Shown: positions 57,667 to 64,000 of the stretch, piece after piece
Numbering within the stretch: the first letter of the stretch is position 1
Layout of the letters: each line of letters begins with the position of its first letter
Source: Pseudomonadota bacterium
GTDB lineage: Bacteria; Pseudomonadota; Gammaproteobacteria; Burkholderiales; Burkholderiaceae_F
Reading direction: 5' to 3'
Assembly: GCA_040752195.1 (NCBI GenBank)
Contig: JBFMFC010000003.1
Location: 40,110 to 104,109 of the forward strand
DNA length: 64,000 nucleotides
Program-made: the position numbers and the translations under genes
The notes under the pieces: generated by a model
What the model was told of the DNA's origin: nothing
Seen by the model: the letters and a program-made list of their open reading frames with translations, nothing else
Databases searched by the model: none

Positions 57667-58086
57667 ATGCTCTGGGTCAAGTCGCTGCACATCATCTTCA
57701 TGGTGACCTGGTTCGCCGGGCTGTTCTATCTGCCGCGGCTGTTCGTCTATCACGCGATGGCCGACGACACGGTGTCGAAGGAGCGCTTCAAGGTCATGGA
57801 GCGCAAGCTGTACTACGGCATCATGACGCCGGGCGCGGTGCTCACCGTCGTCTTCGGCGTCTGGCTGTGGGTCGGCTACGGCATCGGCACCGGCCAGGGC
57901 TGGCTGATGGCCAAGCTCGCGCTGGTGATCGCGCTGATCGGCTACCACATCTACTGCGGCATCCTGCTCGACGACTTCGCGAACGACCGCAACACGAAGT
58001 CGCACGTGTGGTTGCGCTGGTTCAACGAGGCGCCGGTCGTCGTGCTCGCCGGCGCGGTGCTGCTGGTCGTGTTCAAGCCGTTCTGA
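57667..58086 (+). CDS. hemJ: protoporphyrinogen IX oxidase HemJ (CopD-like membrane protein)
   Basis: WVKSLHII..VTWFAGLFYLPRLFVYH, MERKL, RWFNE.P, VVFKPF. Confidence 0.88.
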   Translation: MLWVKSLHIIFMVTWFAGLFYLPRLFVYHAMADDTVSKERFKVMERKLYYGIMTPGAVLTVVFGVWLWVGYGIGTGQGWLMAKLALVIALIGYHIYCGILLDDFANDRNTKSHVWLRWFNEAPVVVLAGAVLLVVFKPF

Positions 58087-58093
58087 GCGGCGT

Positions 58094-58501
58094 TCACACG
58101 ACCCGGATCCGTGCGGCGAGCGCGCGCAGCTCGTCGAGCGGCGGGTTCTTGCGCGGCCAGGCGAGTTCCACGCCGTCATTCGCATAGCGCGGCAGCACGT
58201 GCAGGTGGACGTGCGGCACGGTCTGCCAGCCGGCGGGCCTGTTCGCCTGCAGGACCGTGATGCCTTCGGGCTTGAACGCGGCGTCCACGGCGCGCGCCAC
58301 CCGCGCCGCCGTCGTGAACAGCGCGGCCGCGAGTGCGTCGTCGAGATCGAGGATCGTTTCGACCTGCTTCTTCGTCGCGACGATCACGTGCCCGGGATTG
58401 ACCTGGCCCGCGTCCATGAAGGCGATCGTGTGCTCGTCCTCGTAGACCCTGGCCGCCGGGATCTCGCCGCGCACGATGCGGGTGAAGACAGTCGGTTCCA
58501 T
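58094..58501 (-). CDS. HIT family hydrolase
   Basis: VFTRIVRGEIPA, GHVIV, QTVPHVHLHV histidine triad; start trimmed to ATG 58501. Confidence 0.92.
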   Translation of the reverse strand: MEPTVFTRIVRGEIPAARVYEDEHTIAFMDAGQVNPGHVIVATKKQVETILDLDDALAAALFTTAARVARAVDAAFKPEGITVLQANRPAGWQTVPHVHLHVLPRYANDGVELAWPRKNPPLDELRALAARIRVV

Positions 58502-58580
58502 CGTCGCTACGCTCCGGGTTGCAATGCCCGCATTGTAGAAACCGAAACGCGCACGCGCCCCGACCGCACACGCACGCCGA

Positions 58581-59774
58581 GTGACCACGATCGATTCGTT
58601 CTTCGCCATCTGCCCGCGCGGGCTCGAAGCCGTGCTCGCCGGTGAGCTCGCCACGGTCGGCGCGACCGGCATCCGCGCCGAGTCCGGCGGCGTGGCCTTC
58701 GCCGGCGCGCTGCGCACGGCGTACGCGGCGAACCTGCACGCGCGCATCGCCAGCCGCGTGCTGTGGCAGATCGCGCAGGGGTCCTATCGCGACGAGAGGA
58801 GCCTGTACGCGCTCGCCGCCGACGTGCCGTGGGAGCGCCACTTCTCGCCGCGGCAGACGCTGCGCGTCGACCTGAACGCGTCTCGCTCGCCGCTGGCGAG
58901 CCTCGAATTCGCCACGCTCACGGTCAAGGACGCGATCGTCGACCGGATGCGCGCACGGACCGGCGCGCGCCCTTCGATCGACCGCGCCCGCCCCGACGTG
59001 CGCGTGTTCGTCTACCTCGACGAGTCGACGGCGACGCTGTATCTCGACCTGTCCGGAGAGCCGCTGTTCAAGCGCGGCTGGCGCGAGGACAAGGGCGAGG
59101 CACCGCTGAAGGAAAACCTCGCCGCCGGGCTGCTCGCGCTGGCGGGCTGGACACCCGAGGTGGCGTTGCTCGATCCGTTCTGCGGCAGCGGGACCCTCGT
59201 CATCGAAGCGGCCTCGATCGCGGCGCGGCGCGCGCCGGGACTGCAGCGCCGCTTCGCGTTCGAGAAGCTGCAGGGCTTCGACGCCGCGGCCTGGCGCACG
59301 CTGCGCGAGCAGGCGCACGCGGCGATCGACGATCACGCCCCCGCGCTGATCGCGGGTTCGGACATCTCGACGCGCGTGATCGAGACCGCCCGCCGCAACG
59401 CCCGCCTCGCCGGGCTCGACGCGTGGCTCGCCGACGGACGCCTGCGCCTGACGGCCGCCGACGCGCGCAAGATCGAGCCGCCCGCGCCGGCCGGCATGAT
59501 CGTCACGAACCCGCCCTACGGCGAGCAGAGCCATCCGAAGTCCGCGCCGGTGCCGAAGATGATGGGCGAAGTCGCCGACCGGCTGAAGCAGTCGTTCGCG
59601 GGCTGGACCGCGTGGATCCTGAGCGCGGACCGCGCGCTGCCGCGCCAGATGCGGCTGCAGGAAACGCGCCGGACCGTGCTCTTCAATGGCCCGCTGGAGT
59701 GCCGGTTCTTCCGTTTCGAGATCGTCGCCGGCGCGTACCGGCCGCGCAGCGACGCCTCGGCAGCGACGCGTTAG
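58581..59774 (+). CDS. rlmL: THUMP-domain SAM-dependent rRNA methyltransferase (stand-alone RlmL-like)
   Basis: GLEAVLAGEL, THUMP region, APLKENLAAG, DPFCGSGT, TNPPYG. Confidence 0.8.
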   Translation: MTTIDSFFAICPRGLEAVLAGELATVGATGIRAESGGVAFAGALRTAYAANLHARIASRVLWQIAQGSYRDERSLYALAADVPWERHFSPRQTLRVDLNASRSPLASLEFATLTVKDAIVDRMRARTGARPSIDRARPDVRVFVYLDESTATLYLDLSGEPLFKRGWREDKGEAPLKENLAAGLLALAGWTPEVALLDPFCGSGTLVIEAASIAARRAPGLQRRFAFEKLQGFDAAAWRTLREQAHAAIDDHAPALIAGSDISTRVIETARRNARLAGLDAWLADGRLRLTAADARKIEPPAPAGMIVTNPPYGEQSHPKSAPVPKMMGEVADRLKQSFAGWTAWILSADRALPRQMRLQETRRTVLFNGPLECRFFRFEIVAGAYRPRSDASAATR

Positions 59775-59955: not shown

Positions 59956-60879
59956 ATGCTGTTCCGCGTTTGCGTCGCGTGCGACCACACGAACCCGCCG
60001 GACTCGCGGTTCTGCGGCAAGTGCGGTGCGCCGCTGCAAGTCAGGTTCTGCCGGTCGTGCCGGTCTCCCAACGACGCCGTGTCGCGCCACTGCCAGTCGT
60101 GCGGCACCGAGCTGCCCGAGCTGGCTGAGCCCGAGGCGGCGCTGCCGTCGAACGGGTCCAGGTCGGCAACGATCCCGCCGCTCGTGATCGCCACGCCCGG
60201 GCGCCCGGTGGGCGATACGGCACCGGCACCGTTCGCTGCGCCGACGACGACGACCGCCGCGGCGTTGCCCGGCGGCGAAGTACCTGCGAACGCAGCGGGC
60301 GCGCCTGCGCTCGACGAGACCCGCGCACTGCCGGCCGGCGCCACCGGCGATCAACCCGCGATCGACGCGCTGCCGCAGCGTCCTGCCGGATCGGCGTCGA
60401 TCCTGGTCGACAGCGCGGTCGCGAACGCGAACCTGACCGAACCGGCCAACGGCGCTCGGCAGTCGGCCCGCGCGCGACGCGGGCCATGGGCTGCGCTCGC
60501 GCTCGCCGTCGCCGTGCTCGGCGTCGCATTCGGCGCGTTCGCGTACAAAGCCTGGCGCAACGGTGCCGCCACCGGACCTACGGAGCGCGCGGTCGCCCCG
60601 CCCCCCACGGCGCCCGCGCCACCGCCGCGCGCACAACCCGACGCACCGAGCCCAACCCCGTCACCCGCGCCAGCCGCCGAGTCTGCCGCGCCGCCCGCCG
60701 CGGGCGCGAGCAAGGCGGCACCGCGCGAACGACGCGAAGCGGCGCCGCGCGTTGTCGAGCGCGCCCCGGCGGGCTCGAGCGCGCCCGCCGCCCCCGCCAT
60801 GCCGGCCCTGCGCGAGTGCACCCCACCCGTCGCGGCGCTGGGCCTGTGTACGCCAGAACCCAAACCGGAAGGAAACTGA
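59956..60879 (+). CDS. double-zinc-ribbon, single-pass membrane protein of unknown function
   Basis: CVAC..N...RFCGKCG and CRSC..N....HCQSCG, Pro/Ala-rich linker, one TM helix (WAALALAVAVLGVAFGAFAY), Pro-rich tail ending CTPPVAALGLC. Confidence 0.85.
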   Translation: MLFRVCVACDHTNPPDSRFCGKCGAPLQVRFCRSCRSPNDAVSRHCQSCGTELPELAEPEAALPSNGSRSATIPPLVIATPGRPVGDTAPAPFAAPTTTTAAALPGGEVPANAAGAPALDETRALPAGATGDQPAIDALPQRPAGSASILVDSAVANANLTEPANGARQSARARRGPWAALALAVAVLGVAFGAFAYKAWRNGAATGPTERAVAPPPTAPAPPPRAQPDAPSPTPSPAPAAESAAPPAAGASKAAPRERREAAPRVVERAPAGSSAPAAPAMPALRECTPPVAALGLCTPEPKPEGN

Positions 60880-60884
60880 AGCCC

Positions 60885-61931
60885 ATGCACCGCTTACTGC
60901 GCAACGCCGCCTTTTTCGCCTGCACCTGCGCGCTGGTCCCCGGCGCCGCACTCGCGGGCACGCCGTACAAGATCGTCACCGCCTCCGAGCGCGGGACCTA
61001 CATCCAGATCGGGCGCGATCTCGCGAAGTACGTCGCGCCCGCGGCCGACATCGATCTGGAGGTGCTGCCGTCGGCGGGCTCTTCGGAGAACGTGCAGCGG
61101 CTGCGCTACGAGCCGGGGGTGAAGTTCGCGCTGGTGCAGTCCGACGTCTATCAGGCCTACATCAACCAGGGCGCGAGCGGCCACGCGGAAGCGGCGCGCA
61201 TCATCCGCCCGCTGCGCGTGATCCTGCCGCTGTACAACGAAGAGATCTACTTCATCGCGCGCGCCGACGCGCCGTACACGTTCGTCCACGAGATCCGCGA
61301 CGCGAAGATCAACGTCGGCCTGCTGCGCAGCGGCACCGCGATGTCGGCCACGACGCTGTACCGGCTGATGTTCGACCGCCCGCTGCCCGACGCCAACATC
61401 TCGTTCCTGTCGAACGAGGAGGCGCTCGCCCGGCTCGTCACGGACAAATCGGTCGACGTGGTCGTGGTCGTCGCGGGGCAACCCGCGAAGCTGCTGACCG
61501 ACATGAAGCCCGAGGCGCGCGCGCTGATCAAGCTGCTGAAGCTCGACCCGAAGCACCCCGCGAGCCAGGCCGCGCTGAAGACCTACTTTCCGACGAGCGT
61601 GCGCGCTTCGCTGCATCCGAATCTGCTGACCGAAGACGTGCCCGGGCTTGCGGTGAAAGCCTACCTCGTCACCTACGACTACAACCAGTCGGCCACGCAG
61701 GCGCGGCTGGCGCGCTTCGCGCGTTCGCTGTGCGAGAACTTCGGCACGCTGCAGGCCGAGGGGCACCCCAAGTGGAAGGAAGTCGAGCTGGCGATGCCCG
61801 AACTCGGCCGCGGCTGGGCGTACTTTCCGCCGATCGCGCGCGAGTTCGAGCGCTGCGTCGCCGCCCGCGCCCAGCCCGCCAAGGCGAAGTCATGCACGAC
61901 CGAGCAGAAGATCCTGGGGCTGTGCGAGTAG
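60885..61931 (+). CDS. TAXI family TRAP solute-binding protein (orphan)
   Basis: Signal peptide, TAS.RGTY.QIG.DL, SAGSSENV, ALVQSD, LYNEEIYFIAR, INVG...SGT; start ATG 60885, 5 nt after the previous stop. Confidence 0.85.
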   Translation: MHRLLRNAAFFACTCALVPGAALAGTPYKIVTASERGTYIQIGRDLAKYVAPAADIDLEVLPSAGSSENVQRLRYEPGVKFALVQSDVYQAYINQGASGHAEAARIIRPLRVILPLYNEEIYFIARADAPYTFVHEIRDAKINVGLLRSGTAMSATTLYRLMFDRPLPDANISFLSNEEALARLVTDKSVDVVVVVAGQPAKLLTDMKPEARALIKLLKLDPKHPASQAALKTYFPTSVRASLHPNLLTEDVPGLAVKAYLVTYDYNQSATQARLARFARSLCENFGTLQAEGHPKWKEVELAMPELGRGWAYFPPIAREFERCVAARAQPAKAKSCTTEQKILGLCE

Positions 61932-61944
61932 CGGCGCGCGCCGC

Positions 61945-62427
61945 TCAGCCGAGCGCCTTTTCGATGTCGGCAGCGATGTCTTCGGGCTTGGTCGTCGGCG
62001 CGTAGCGCGCGATGACCTTTCCATCCCTGCCGATCAGGAACTTGGTGAAGTTCCACTTGATCGCTTCCGAACCGAGCAGCCCGGGTTTGGCCGACGTCAG
62101 GTACTTGAACAGCGGATGCGCGTTCTCGCCGTTGACGTCGACCTTGGCGAACAGCGGGAACGTGACGCCGTAGTTCGTCTCGCAGAACTCGGCGATCTCC
62201 GACTCGGAGCCCGGCTCCTGCGCGCCGAACTGGTTGCACGGGAAGCCCAGCACGACAAAGCCGCGCTTGGCGAACCGCCGGTACAGCGCCTCGAGCCCCT
62301 TGTACTGCGGTGTAAAGCCGCACCGGCTCGCGGTGTTGACGATCAGCAGAACCTTGCCCTTGAAGTCGGCGAGCTTTTTCGGCTTGCCGTCGAGGGTCTT
62401 GGCCGAGAAGTCATAGACGGTCGGCAT
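61945..62427 (-). CDS. glutathione peroxidase family protein
   Basis: VNTASRCGFTPQY, GFPCNQFGAQEP, WNFTKFL; Cys rather than Sec; start ATG 62427. Confidence 0.95.
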   Translation of the reverse strand: MPTVYDFSAKTLDGKPKKLADFKGKVLLIVNTASRCGFTPQYKGLEALYRRFAKRGFVVLGFPCNQFGAQEPGSESEIAEFCETNYGVTFPLFAKVDVNGENAHPLFKYLTSAKPGLLGSEAIKWNFTKFLIGRDGKVIARYAPTTKPEDIAADIEKALG

Positions 62428-62447
62428 ACGCGTCCCCGGTCGGCGGT

Positions 62448-62867
62448 TCAGACGACGAGCCTGGCGTTGAGCACGATGCGCGGCCCGGCGAGCGCTTTCG
62501 ACACGGGGCAGCCCTGCTTGGCGGCTTCGGCGTGCTGCTGGAAGTCGGCCGCCGCCAGCCCGGGCACTTCGGCTTCGGTGGTCAGCTCGATCAGCTCGAT
62601 CGCGGGCCCTTCGCCGAGGTGAACCGCAGCCGTGGTGTGGATGCGCTTGGGCGTGAAGCCCGCTTTCGTCAGCAGCGCCGACAGGAACATCGAATAGCAG
62701 CCTGCGTGCGCCGCGCCGATCAGTTCCTCCGGATTGGTTCCTGGTCCGGACTCGAAGCGCGAAGCGAAGGTGAACGGCCCTTCGTAGGCCCCGCTGCCGA
62801 GCCGCATCGTCCCGGCGCCTTCCTTCAGCGTGCCCTTCCATTCGGCCGACGAGGTGCGTACCGTCAT
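62448..62867 (-). CDS. osmC: OsmC family peroxiredoxin
   Basis: GTNPEELIGAAHAGCYSM, AKQGCPVSKAL. Confidence 0.93.
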   Translation of the reverse strand: MTVRTSSAEWKGTLKEGAGTMRLGSGAYEGPFTFASRFESGPGTNPEELIGAAHAGCYSMFLSALLTKAGFTPKRIHTTAAVHLGEGPAIELIELTTEAEVPGLAAADFQQHAEAAKQGCPVSKALAGPRIVLNARLVV

Positions 62868-63002
62868 GGCGTCCTCCTTGCGTCAGTCACCCGCCGACAT
62901 CGTAGTACGCGCAGCGGCCGGCGCGCAGCGGCCAGCGTGCGGCGGGGAAGACCTGCCGGCTGACGGGAGGTCGTGCGCGGCGGAAGCGCCGCGCCGCTGC
63001 GG

Positions 63003-64000
63003 TCAGCCCGCCAGCCCGAGGTGCTCGATGCCCTTGTGGATCCCCGCCACGCCGCCGTACAGCTTGGAGTTGAGCTTGATCTGCAGCCGCAGATCGTTGA
63101 CGGAGTCGGCGTTGCGCAGCGCATCCTCGTACGAGATCAGTTCGCGCTCGTGCAGATCGAACAGCGCCTGGTCGAACGTCTGCATGCCCTGCTCGCGCGA
63201 GCGCTTCATCACATCCTTGATCTCGTGCACTTCGCCCTTGAAAATCAGGTCCGAGATCAGCGGCGAGTTGAGCATGATCTCGACTGCGGGAATGCGGCCC
63301 TTGCGGTCCTTGAACGCAACGAGCCGCTGCGAAATCATCGCGCGCAGGTTCAGCGACAGATCCATCAGAAGCTGGCTGCGCCTGTCCTCGGGGAAGAAGT
63401 TGATCACGCGGTCGAGCGCCTGATTGGTGCTGTTCGCGTGCAGCGTGCACATCACCAGGTGGCCGGTCTCGGCGAAAGCGATCGCGTGCTCCATCGTTTC
63501 GCGGTCGCGCACCTCGCCGATCAGGATCACGTCGGGCGCCTGCCGCAGCGTGTTCTTCAGCGCCACGCTCCAGCTGTCGCAGTCCACGCCGACCTCGCGC
63601 TGCGTGATGATGCAGTTCTTGTGCGGATGGACGTACTCGATCGGGTCCTCGATCGTGATGATGTGGCCCTGGCTGTTCTCGTTGCGGTAGCCGACCATCG
63701 CGGCGAGCGTGGTCGACTTGCCCGAACCGGTTGCGCCGACCACCATCACGATGCCGCGCTTGGCCATCGCCAGCTCGTTGATCAGCGTCGGCAGGTTCAG
63801 CTCCTCGACCGTCGGGATCCGGTCGGCAATCGTCCGGAAGACGATGCCGACCTTGCCCTGCTGCACGAACGCGGAGACGCGGAAGCGGCCGATCCCGGTC
63901 GGGTTGATCGCGAAGTTGCACTCCTTGGTCGCCTCGAACTCGGCGGCCTGGCGGTCGTTCATGATCGCTCGCACCAGCTCCGCGGTGTGCTGCGCCGTCA
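63003..64000 (-). CDS. pilU: PilT/PilU family twitching-motility ATPase (PilU-like), 5' end outside window
   Basis: GATGSGKST, TIEDPIE, NTLRQAPDVILIGEVRD, HLVMCTLHAN, GMQTFDQ; IMNDRQ..EF is PilU-type. Confidence 0.9.
   Translation of the reverse strand, partial: TAQHTAELVRAIMNDRQAAEFEATKECNFAINPTGIGRFRVSAFVQQGKVGIVFRTIADRIPTVEELNLPTLINELAMAKRGIVMVVGATGSGKSTTLAAMVGYRNENSQGHIITIEDPIEYVHPHKNCIITQREVGVDCDSWSVALKNTLRQAPDVILIGEVRDRETMEHAIAFAETGHLVMCTLHANSTNQALDRVINFFPEDRRSQLLMDLSLNLRAMISQRLVAFKDRKGRIPAVEIMLNSPLISDLIFKGEVHEIKDVMKRSREQGMQTFDQALFDLHERELISYEDALRNADSVNDLRLQIKLNSKLYGGVAGIHKGIEHLGLAG

Follow-up and report, generated by a model that had tools for sequence, protein, structure and literature searches.

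Why should two neighbouring, unrelated proteins carry the same short cysteine-flanked element at their C-terminal ends? The question is raised by a gene pair in a 64,000-nt stretch of DNA (hereafter the window) from a Pseudomonadota bacterium of the Burkholderiales (assembly GCA_040752195.1, contig JBFMFC010000003.1, positions 40,110 to 104,109). The first gene of the pair encodes a zinc-ribbon membrane protein, hereafter the partner, and the second a binding protein of the TAXI family. An initial annotation of the window reported the motif CTPPVAALGLC in the former (60817-60849, + strand) and CTTEQKILGLC in the latter (61893-61925, + strand), with the same spacing and 6 of 11 residues identical (C, T, L, G, L and C); translation of the two open reading frames (ORFs) reproduced the coordinates, the spacing and the match exactly. 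The analysis described below shows that this loop is real and conserved, has not been described so far and is confined to the gene pair. We put a probability of roughly 60% on the reading that both loops are docking tags, closable by a disulfide, of a split TAXI receptor that depends on its binding protein and has no transporter.

Two loops in one gene pair

The two genes and their loops are as follows.

59956..60879, + strand: partner gene, encoding a bitopic membrane protein of 307 amino acids (aa); from translation, orthologues sharing the same start Met
60817..60849, + strand: partner Cys loop CTPPVAALGLC, C288-C298; from translation and the family consensus C-T-x-x-V-A-A-L-G-L-C
60885..61931, + strand: gene for a TAXI-fold binding protein of 348 aa; from Pfam PF16868 and a fold model, with no transporter gene beside it
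61893..61925, + strand: TAXI Cys loop CTTEQKILGLC, C337-C347; from translation and homologues, with a short helix at residues 339-343 in the model

Five nucleotides separate the stop codon of the partner gene from the start codon of the TAXI gene, and the two genes are translationally coupled. The TAXI protein ends in ...KSCTTEQKILGLCE, its loop closing one residue before the stop, and the partner ends in ...RECTPPVAALGLCTPEPKPEGN. The initial annotation had the zinc-ribbon protein end in the motif itself; the motif does lie near the C-terminus, and nine further residues come after it.

Searched in all six frames with the pattern C.{6}LGLC, the complete assembly (3.96 Mb, 69% GC) gave only 2 matches, which are the two loops of the pair. 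The composition-based expectation for six frames is 1.7 matches, or 0.09 with T at position 2, and the chance that any adjacent gene pair has the motif at both C-termini is about 1e-11; chance was rejected as the explanation of the two motifs. A count of C-x9-C ends among greedily called ORFs of this genome was dropped, being swamped by spurious frames. The initial annotation knew no named family for the motif. Neither Pfam nor NCBIfam has a model spanning the loop, and the loop was not described in anything that literature text searches brought up, whether for the motif strings or for TAXI in combination with a zinc ribbon, a kinase or a disulfide.

Conservation of the loops and their restriction to the pair

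We scanned 185,579 genomes, one per species, and obtained 519 related loci, of which the best 80 were analysed. These 80 loci all belong to the Burkholderiales in the wide sense and come from Aromatoleum, Azohydromonas, Polaromonas, Rhodoferax, Rubrivivax, Caldimonas, Casimicrobiaceae and many uncultured lineages. Cultured carriers include Azohydromonas australica DSM 1124, Aromatoleum buckelii U120, Polaromonas sp. OV174 and Pseudorhodoferax sp. Leaf267. The TAXI loop is present in every one of the 79 loci that could be scored. Among the 120 closest homologues of the TAXI protein it is kept in 119, the sole exception being a Gly-to-Arg change, and their ends follow the pattern C-[TSP]-[TQ]-[EQ]-[QE]-[KR]-I-L-G-L-C with 1-3 residues after it.

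Enough upstream sequence to assess the partner was available in 73 of the 80 loci. In 68 of these an upstream gene of the same orientation ends in C-[TP]-x-x-[VMI]-x-A-L-[GASN]-L-C, its distance to the start of the TAXI gene being mostly -4 to +4 nt. Of 70 unique partner ends, 36 have exactly 9 residues behind the loop. Conservation in the orthologues of both proteins, on which the initial annotation had staked its proposal, was therefore observed for either loop. In two loci (L034, L065) the partner with its loop does not abut the TAXI gene but is found some 1.5 kb further upstream, with an insertion between the genes. Three loci without a partner loop (L042:2132-3727, and the upstream ORFs in L075 and L080) have at this place a secreted Gly-rich, Pro/Gln-rich protein of about 530 aa that gave no Pfam match; these proteins end in ...KVALNLK, ...KALLNLK or ...KVVLNVQ, which is like the loop core A-L-[GN]-L without the cysteines.

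No third gene is conserved near the pair, any other neighbour being found in at most 9 of the 80 loci, and in none of them does a transporter or permease gene stand beside the TAXI gene. As to a dedicated enzyme, for the co-occurrence of which the initial annotation had suggested a test, no conserved enzyme gene lies beside the pair in these loci.

A 19-column profile of the partner loop was then searched in 151 evenly sampled Burkholderiales genomes, matches of about 25 bits or more being regarded as real. Three strong matches were obtained (G000, G037 and G114), each adjoining a loop-bearing TAXI gene; the weaker matches that were inspected lay in unrelated or wrong frames and were considered noise. 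We concluded that the loop is confined to this gene pair.

Partner proteins have interchangeable heads and a common loop

The remaining features of the partner in the window are given below.

59971..60105, + strand: double zinc ribbon, residues 6-50, predicted to be cytoplasmic; from Pfam PF12773
60487..60546, + strand: single predicted membrane helix, W178-Y197; from sequence and a hydropathy scan giving one segment, at the same place in orthologues
60547..60816, + strand: Pro/Ala-rich low-complexity stalk, Cys-free, probably periplasmic; from sequence and the tail composition of partners
60850..60876, + strand: nine-residue tail TPEPKPEGN after the loop, its codons overlapping a purine-rich stretch ahead of the next ATG

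The protein thus consists of a zinc-ribbon head, one membrane helix, a Pro/Ala stalk and the Cys loop. It matches the Pfam double zinc ribbon DZR PF12773 (E 5e-10) and, with 28.8 bits against a cut-off of 24, the NCBIfam model 4Cys_prefix_kin NF045510, a '4-Cys prefix' domain that NCBIfam named for kinase-type proteins. A zinc-binding anti-sigma (ZAS) factor was considered and rejected: the head is a CxxC...CxxC double zinc ribbon and does not have the ZAS motif HxxxCxxC, the ORF upstream is by eye a THUMP-type methylase, where a ZAS factor would have an ECF sigma factor gene adjacent to it, and no neighbour is conserved.

Alignment and Pfam searches of 77 loop-bearing upstream proteins, which matched 22 Pfam families, showed that the two loop cysteines are the only invariant columns. 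Conservation within the loop is otherwise strict at T2, L8, G9 and L10, the L, G and L ahead of the second Cys being found in at least 90% of the partners. The heads are of different kinds, namely DZR (45 proteins), Hanks-type Pkinase (6), the J-domain DnaJ (4), an AAA_22/ExeA-like NTPase (3) and a secreted vWA/Lcl_C protein (1); no ParA-type head is among the 22 families. In nearly all partners a single hydrophobic helix precedes a tail of 95-225 residues with 25-59% Pro+Ala and exactly 2 Cys, which are those of the loop, and some partners (L037, L143 and L067) have two or three copies of the loop. No Pfam domain lies past the membrane helix, which is to say that no folded domain was found outside the membrane.

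The kinase partners come from metagenome contigs with 27-38% GC, and beyond the membrane helix they have just some 30-45 low-complexity residues and the loop. Since the kinase domain must be cytoplasmic, the loop of these proteins is placed outside the cytoplasm, and it is their only candidate input element. In one AT-rich locus (L186:2501-3757) the gene ahead of the TAXI gene encodes a secreted vWA + Lcl_C protein in place of a membrane kinase; this protein ends in ...KLGLCSDRNKALGLCREK, with the loop kept.

The second protein has a TAXI fold and an additional pair of cysteines

Two further features of the TAXI gene in the window were delimited.

60885..60956, + strand: Sec-type signal peptide, residues 1-24, predicted to be cleaved between ALA and G; from sequence and a helix at residues 2-16 in the model
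61731..61856, + strand: span between the first conserved Cys pair, C283 (61731-61733) and C324 (61854-61856); from alignments of 22 and 89 members

The TAXI protein matches Pfam NMT1_3/TAXI PF16868 with a score of 82.7 against a cut-off of 27 (E 4.5e-23), and scores 80.7 bits with TIGR02122, under the curated cut-off of 84.35 for that family. A first AlphaFold2 model, made with 22 close homologues, was unusable (predicted local distance difference test, pLDDT, 50.7) and was replaced by a run with an 89-sequence alignment, which gave a pLDDT of 94.2 and a predicted template modelling score (pTM) of 0.87. The best Foldseek matches of this model are all TAXI structures, with E from 5e-20 to 5e-17 and template modelling (TM) scores of 0.73-0.78 (target-normalised for the best), the value of 0.78 belonging to the TAXI structures 9ibo and 1us4; the sensor binding proteins AioX and ArrX appear lower in the list. 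Model and Foldseek matches together assign the protein to the two-lobed TAXI binding-protein fold. Profile matches of the protein led to the same PDB entries, and the solved TAXI chains align to about residue 295 only.

The loop lies past this aligned region. It is also missing from the two canonical TAXI proteins of the same genome; the initial annotation did not know the motif as part of the TAXI fold. The protein of the window is a third, divergent paralogue, 23-24% identical to the canonical two. Two canonical TAXI permeases that score over the cut-off are encoded on contigs C5 and C11 of this genome, and beside each stands a canonical TAXI gene of its own; no fused TRAP permease (TIGR02123) is linked to the TAXI gene of the window.

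In the model, a short helix (residues 339-343, T-E-Q-K-I) lies between the two loop cysteines, and the pLDDT of the tail is about 85. From this we infer that the TAXI loop would be composed of a Thr N-cap, a helix of 1.5 turns and a Gly C-cap that returns the second Cys to the first. The partner loop, with its T, then P-P-V-A-A and then L-G-L, would be compatible with the same helix scheme.

The four cysteines C283, C324, C337 and C347 are all invariant in the 22 closest family members. Only C283 and C324 are invariant in the wider alignment of 89 sequences, because some of its members have no loop. A clade in which the loop is lost (P0141) has kept C283 and C324 and has neither of the loop cysteines. 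Thus the loop cysteines of TAXI proteins are gained or lost together, and the partners with 2 or 3 loops contain 4 or 6 Cys. Genes for DsbA and DsbB were found in the genome. The Cys parity on loop loss and the presence of the DsbA and DsbB genes support two separate predicted disulfides in the TAXI protein, C283-C324 and C337-C347.

In the AT-rich clade the loops of a pair are matched and inherited together

In the AT-rich clade the partner loop is closer to the loop of its own TAXI protein than to the partner consensus of the Burkholderiales. The two loops are CTDDDVLLGLC and CTADDKILGLC in locus L141 and CSEDDHTVGLC and CSADDREVGLC in L147, and in L148 both proteins have CSQRDYDTGVC (11/11). 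The DNA encoding the two copies in L148 shows 5 synonymous and 0 non-synonymous differences; for this reason the identity of the loops argues for selection and not for recent copying. By exact permutation, cognate loops in this clade are more alike than non-cognate ones, with p 0.005 for 7 pairs and 0.011 for 6 pairs.

Over residues 1-288 the kinases of L148 and L207 share 92% identity. Beyond this point homology is lost, with a different helix, stalk and loop, and identity between the TAXI proteins encoded downstream is only 63%. The stalk, the loop and the TAXI gene thus travel together, and the head in front of them can be exchanged.

Fused and loop-less relatives

A profile search of 1.84 billion cluster representatives (50% identity) detected 3514 relatives at E <= 0.001 and 334 at E <= 1e-30. 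Some of them are fusions in which a single membrane helix joins the TAXI-like domain to an nSTAND1/AAA_16/NACHT-like P-loop NTPase, a TIR domain, a PP2C-like domain (by eye) or, in one case, a zinc ribbon. These architectures show that this TAXI subfamily is used as the outer domain of type-II receptor-like proteins. Where the C-terminus is complete, a C-x9-C end, degenerate forms included, occurs in 34 of 55 stand-alone proteins against 1 of the 21 N-terminal fusions scored. A lipoprotein signal was tried as the explanation of the loop-less stand-alone proteins and set aside, as a regular expression showed no clear pattern. The search of the phylum with a loop-less TAXI protein in 400 evenly sampled genomes gave only two new loci.

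Compared with the PADLOC models of known anti-phage defence systems, the two proteins of the window gave nothing meaningful: P0002 had no match and P0001 just a low-complexity match (E 0.002); candidate models were matched only by the TIR and PP2C-like heads of the distant fusions. Of three inspected contexts of nSTAND1-membrane-helix-TAXI fusion genes, two have an adjoining OmpA-family gene (L134:8129-8575 and L135:8429-9085) and the third (L133) lies among integrase and phage-like genes. In the P0141 clade (L131 and L132, both contigs inspected) a convergent cluster of PrkA, DUF444 (YeaH-like) and SpoVR genes is found downstream of the pair. The zinc-ribbon fusion, P0170, is a metagenomic protein of 563 aa in which zinc ribbon, helix, linker and TAXI domain form a single chain, 46% identical to the TAXI protein of the window and without the loop.

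What the loops may do

We propose that both motifs are copies of one 11-residue C-x9-C element. Each would form a helix of about 1.5 turns, with a Thr/Ser N-cap and a Gly C-cap, and would probably be closed in the periplasm by a disulfide between its own cysteines. One half of the pair would be a type-II membrane protein with an interchangeable cytoplasmic head and a disordered extracytoplasmic stalk ending in the loop; the other would be a secreted, transporter-less binding protein of TAXI fold with the same loop at its end. Through the loops the soluble ligand-binding TAXI protein would attach to the membrane partner, and the pair would act as a split receptor. Docking might be loop to loop, or both loops might enter the same site on the TAXI body. 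Of the options offered by the initial annotation, the docking tag and the undescribed two-gene envelope system are those that we favour.

Several observations weigh against docking of this kind. The loop of the TAXI protein is lost in the P0141 clade, in which the zinc-ribbon partner keeps CTEAMAALGLC or CTEAVAALGLC, and in five genomes with a TAXI loop no partner loop was found anywhere at E <= 0.05. The TIR-membrane-helix-TAXI fusions keep the loop though they are covalently joined. The shortage of loops among the other fusions carries less weight than it seems: the loop-less nSTAND1 fusions are about one clade, nested among loop-less stand-alone proteins, so few independent events are involved, and the Fisher p of 4.5e-6 for fusion against loop, inflated according to the tree by this single-clade origin, was set aside as evidence of many events. 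P0170 is likewise weak as a Rosetta-stone fusion, since it is the one zinc-ribbon-TAXI fusion, from a single cluster, and its binding-site motifs are degenerate, so that it may be decaying. As for the matching of loops, only 6-7 pairs entered the permutation test for the AT-rich clade; the 76 GC-rich pairs show only a small cognate excess (413 against 401.7 +/- 3.6), which relatedness may explain, and the loops of the Burkholderiales have just C, T/S, L, G, L and C in common. The lineages with one loop and the TIR fusions that keep theirs are easier to reconcile with a loop that binds the TAXI body, or with promiscuous self-association, than with a strict loop-loop pair or a four-cysteine clasp.

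A bolder version, which we advance tentatively and with a low expectation, makes the loop a portable, self-matching address label that would define a large and hitherto undescribed group of split receptors of the type-II kind. In these a TAXI sensor with no transporter would be clipped, by its own loop and by that of the partner, to exchangeable cytoplasmic heads (Ser/Thr kinase, zinc ribbon, J-domain, AAA/STAND NTPase), with TIR and nSTAND1 heads among the fused relatives. As the label is present on both proteins, it may bind a site on the TAXI body; sensors could then form head-to-tail chains or clusters on the membrane partner, and a signal would arise from the clustering, as happens with the immunity proteins of the TIR and STAND families. 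The partners with 2-3 loops are in keeping with such chains or clusters.

If the loops are not docking to each other or to the TAXI body, both might be recognised by a third component. This might be a housekeeping structure or protein of the envelope, such as peptidoglycan or a protein of the OmpA or Tol-Pal type, by which the two proteins would be brought to the same spot, or else an enzyme for processing or sorting. The occurrence of each loop without the other in some lineages, the repetition of the loop in some partners and the OmpA-family genes beside two of the three inspected nSTAND1-TAXI fusions would all suit this idea, which we nevertheless think unlikely: the best 80 loci have no conserved third gene, a genome has only two carriers of the loop, and the loops diverge fast yet match within a pair, with which a third factor would need to co-vary. 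The form with an enzyme, which the initial annotation had offered as a sorting or processing signal, is disfavoured. PEP-CTERM, GlyGly-CTERM and LPXTG are, like the loop, short conserved elements near the C-termini of exported proteins, and such a sorting signal was rejected here, as only 1 or 9 polar residues follow the motif, with no hydrophobic helix or basic cluster among them, and no enzyme gene is conserved nearby. That the loop is a sorting signal is thus unlikely. The remaining option of the initial annotation, a clasp, would hold the TAXI protein to its partner by inter-protein disulfides or a four-Cys metal site. Two cysteines per side at identical spacing, an oxidising compartment with DsbA and DsbB present, and loops matching within the pair are what a clasp would lead one to expect. 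Lineages with only one of the two loops cannot build a 2+2 clasp, by which its compulsory four-cysteine form is weakened. Moreover, DsbA normally joins consecutive cysteines, a preference that favours C337-C347 and C288-C298, and C-x9-C is not a usual metal-binding spacing, so that we hold a clasp to be quite unlikely.

Two explanations do without any joining of the proteins. The loop might be a structural cap, a disulfide-stapled end that shields a flexible C-terminus from periplasmic tail-specific proteases and plays no role in pairing. Both loops do lie at or near C-termini behind flexible linkers, and the model shows a small self-contained helix-turn, but a generic cap would be expected on other periplasmic proteins as well, whereas the loop is confined to the pair. 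A cap also leaves unexplained the matched loops within pairs, the identical loops of L148 under synonymous change, and the loop as the sole conserved extracytoplasmic feature of receptor-type kinases; we consider it very unlikely. Still more improbable, in our opinion, is a reversible redox switch or sensor of thiol-reactive compounds, in which the Cys pair would report periplasmic redox to the head. Paired cysteines in an oxidising compartment could work in this manner, and genes for a glutathione peroxidase and OsmC lie just downstream in the window on the opposite strand. This peroxidase-type neighbourhood is not conserved, however, and the strictness of T2, L8, G9 and L10 together with a complete ligand-binding TAXI fold points to a structural role. 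A loop of the pilin type was also rejected: type IV pilins have a C-terminal disulfide-bonded loop, and neither protein has a pilin-type N-terminus.

Comparison with known systems

The two-lobed fold, PF16868 and the signal peptide are shared with the TAXI binding proteins of TRAP transporters (TIGR02122; VcGluP 8S4J/9IBO, Thermus 1US4/8U79 and Ehrlichia 4DDD). The protein of the window differs from these in falling under the TIGR02122 cut-off, in having no permease gene, and in its C-terminal extension with a second Cys pair, the loop.

The arrangement of a binding-protein gene adjoining that of a membrane protein with a cytoplasmic head is like that of the receptors stimulated by binding proteins (TorT/TorS, LuxP/LuxQ, AioX/AioS and GlnH/GlnX/PknG). 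Such adjacency was found in the 68 of 73 loci mentioned above, with Pkinase, DnaJ, AAA_22 and zinc-ribbon heads in the family and a zinc ribbon only in the window. The head of the AT-rich clade is a Hanks kinase, as in GlnH/GlnX/PknG, which is the only characterised Ser/Thr-kinase case of binding-protein-dependent signalling according to a 2021 review (PMC8050422). In the known receptors, docking of the binding protein takes place on a periplasmic ligand-binding domain that is folded (PMC8050422); unlike them, the loop-bearing partner has no such domain but only a disordered stalk with the loop of 11 residues, which recurs on the binding protein.

PCTM systems are described in a preprint (bioRxiv 10.64898/2026.10.19.760177) as having a ParA with a C-terminal membrane domain and sometimes a downstream extracellular TAXI protein, and envelope-perturbation sensing has been proposed for them. 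They resemble the loop pairs in having a type-II membrane protein with a cytoplasmic NTPase head followed by an extracellular TAXI-family gene, and the section of the preprint consulted mentions no Cys loop. The 77 partners differ from them in having no ParA head, and no upstream effector gene is conserved at the loop pairs. Membrane-anchored TAXI proteins (Roden et al. 2023, cited in PMC12344293) and BP0403, the lipoprotein TAXI of a TAXI-GltS system, are like our proposal in that the binding protein is held at the membrane and does not diffuse freely. They are anchored by their own N-terminal helix or lipid and serve transporters; in our proposal a separate protein and a loop at the C-terminus would provide the anchor, and no transporter is involved.

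The pair is best read as a form of binding-protein-dependent signalling with a new coupling device. Signalling of this kind is known from a handful of cases, and the loop family, with its 519 loci, would work without a receptor ectodomain. If the loops are docking tags, they offer a simple sequence rule by which orphan TAXI proteins can be paired with signalling partners, and they would explain the transporter-less state of these TAXI proteins. They would also link a nutrient-binding fold with kinase, chaperone-recruiting, STAND and TIR heads, which are otherwise tied to stress and immunity signalling. The loop could serve as a compact periplasmic tethering tag.

Surroundings of the pair in the window

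One feature was noted immediately behind the pair.

61942..61955, + strand: terminator-like hairpin, from a consensus scan only and not above shuffle expectation

The flanking ORFs at 57667-59774 and 61945-63974 are ordinary by eye, and none of them is conserved beside the pair elsewhere. By eye they were assigned to a HemJ-like membrane protein, a HIT-family protein (HVHLHVLPR), a THUMP-type RNA methylase, a glutathione peroxidase, OsmC and a PilT/PilU-type ATPase.

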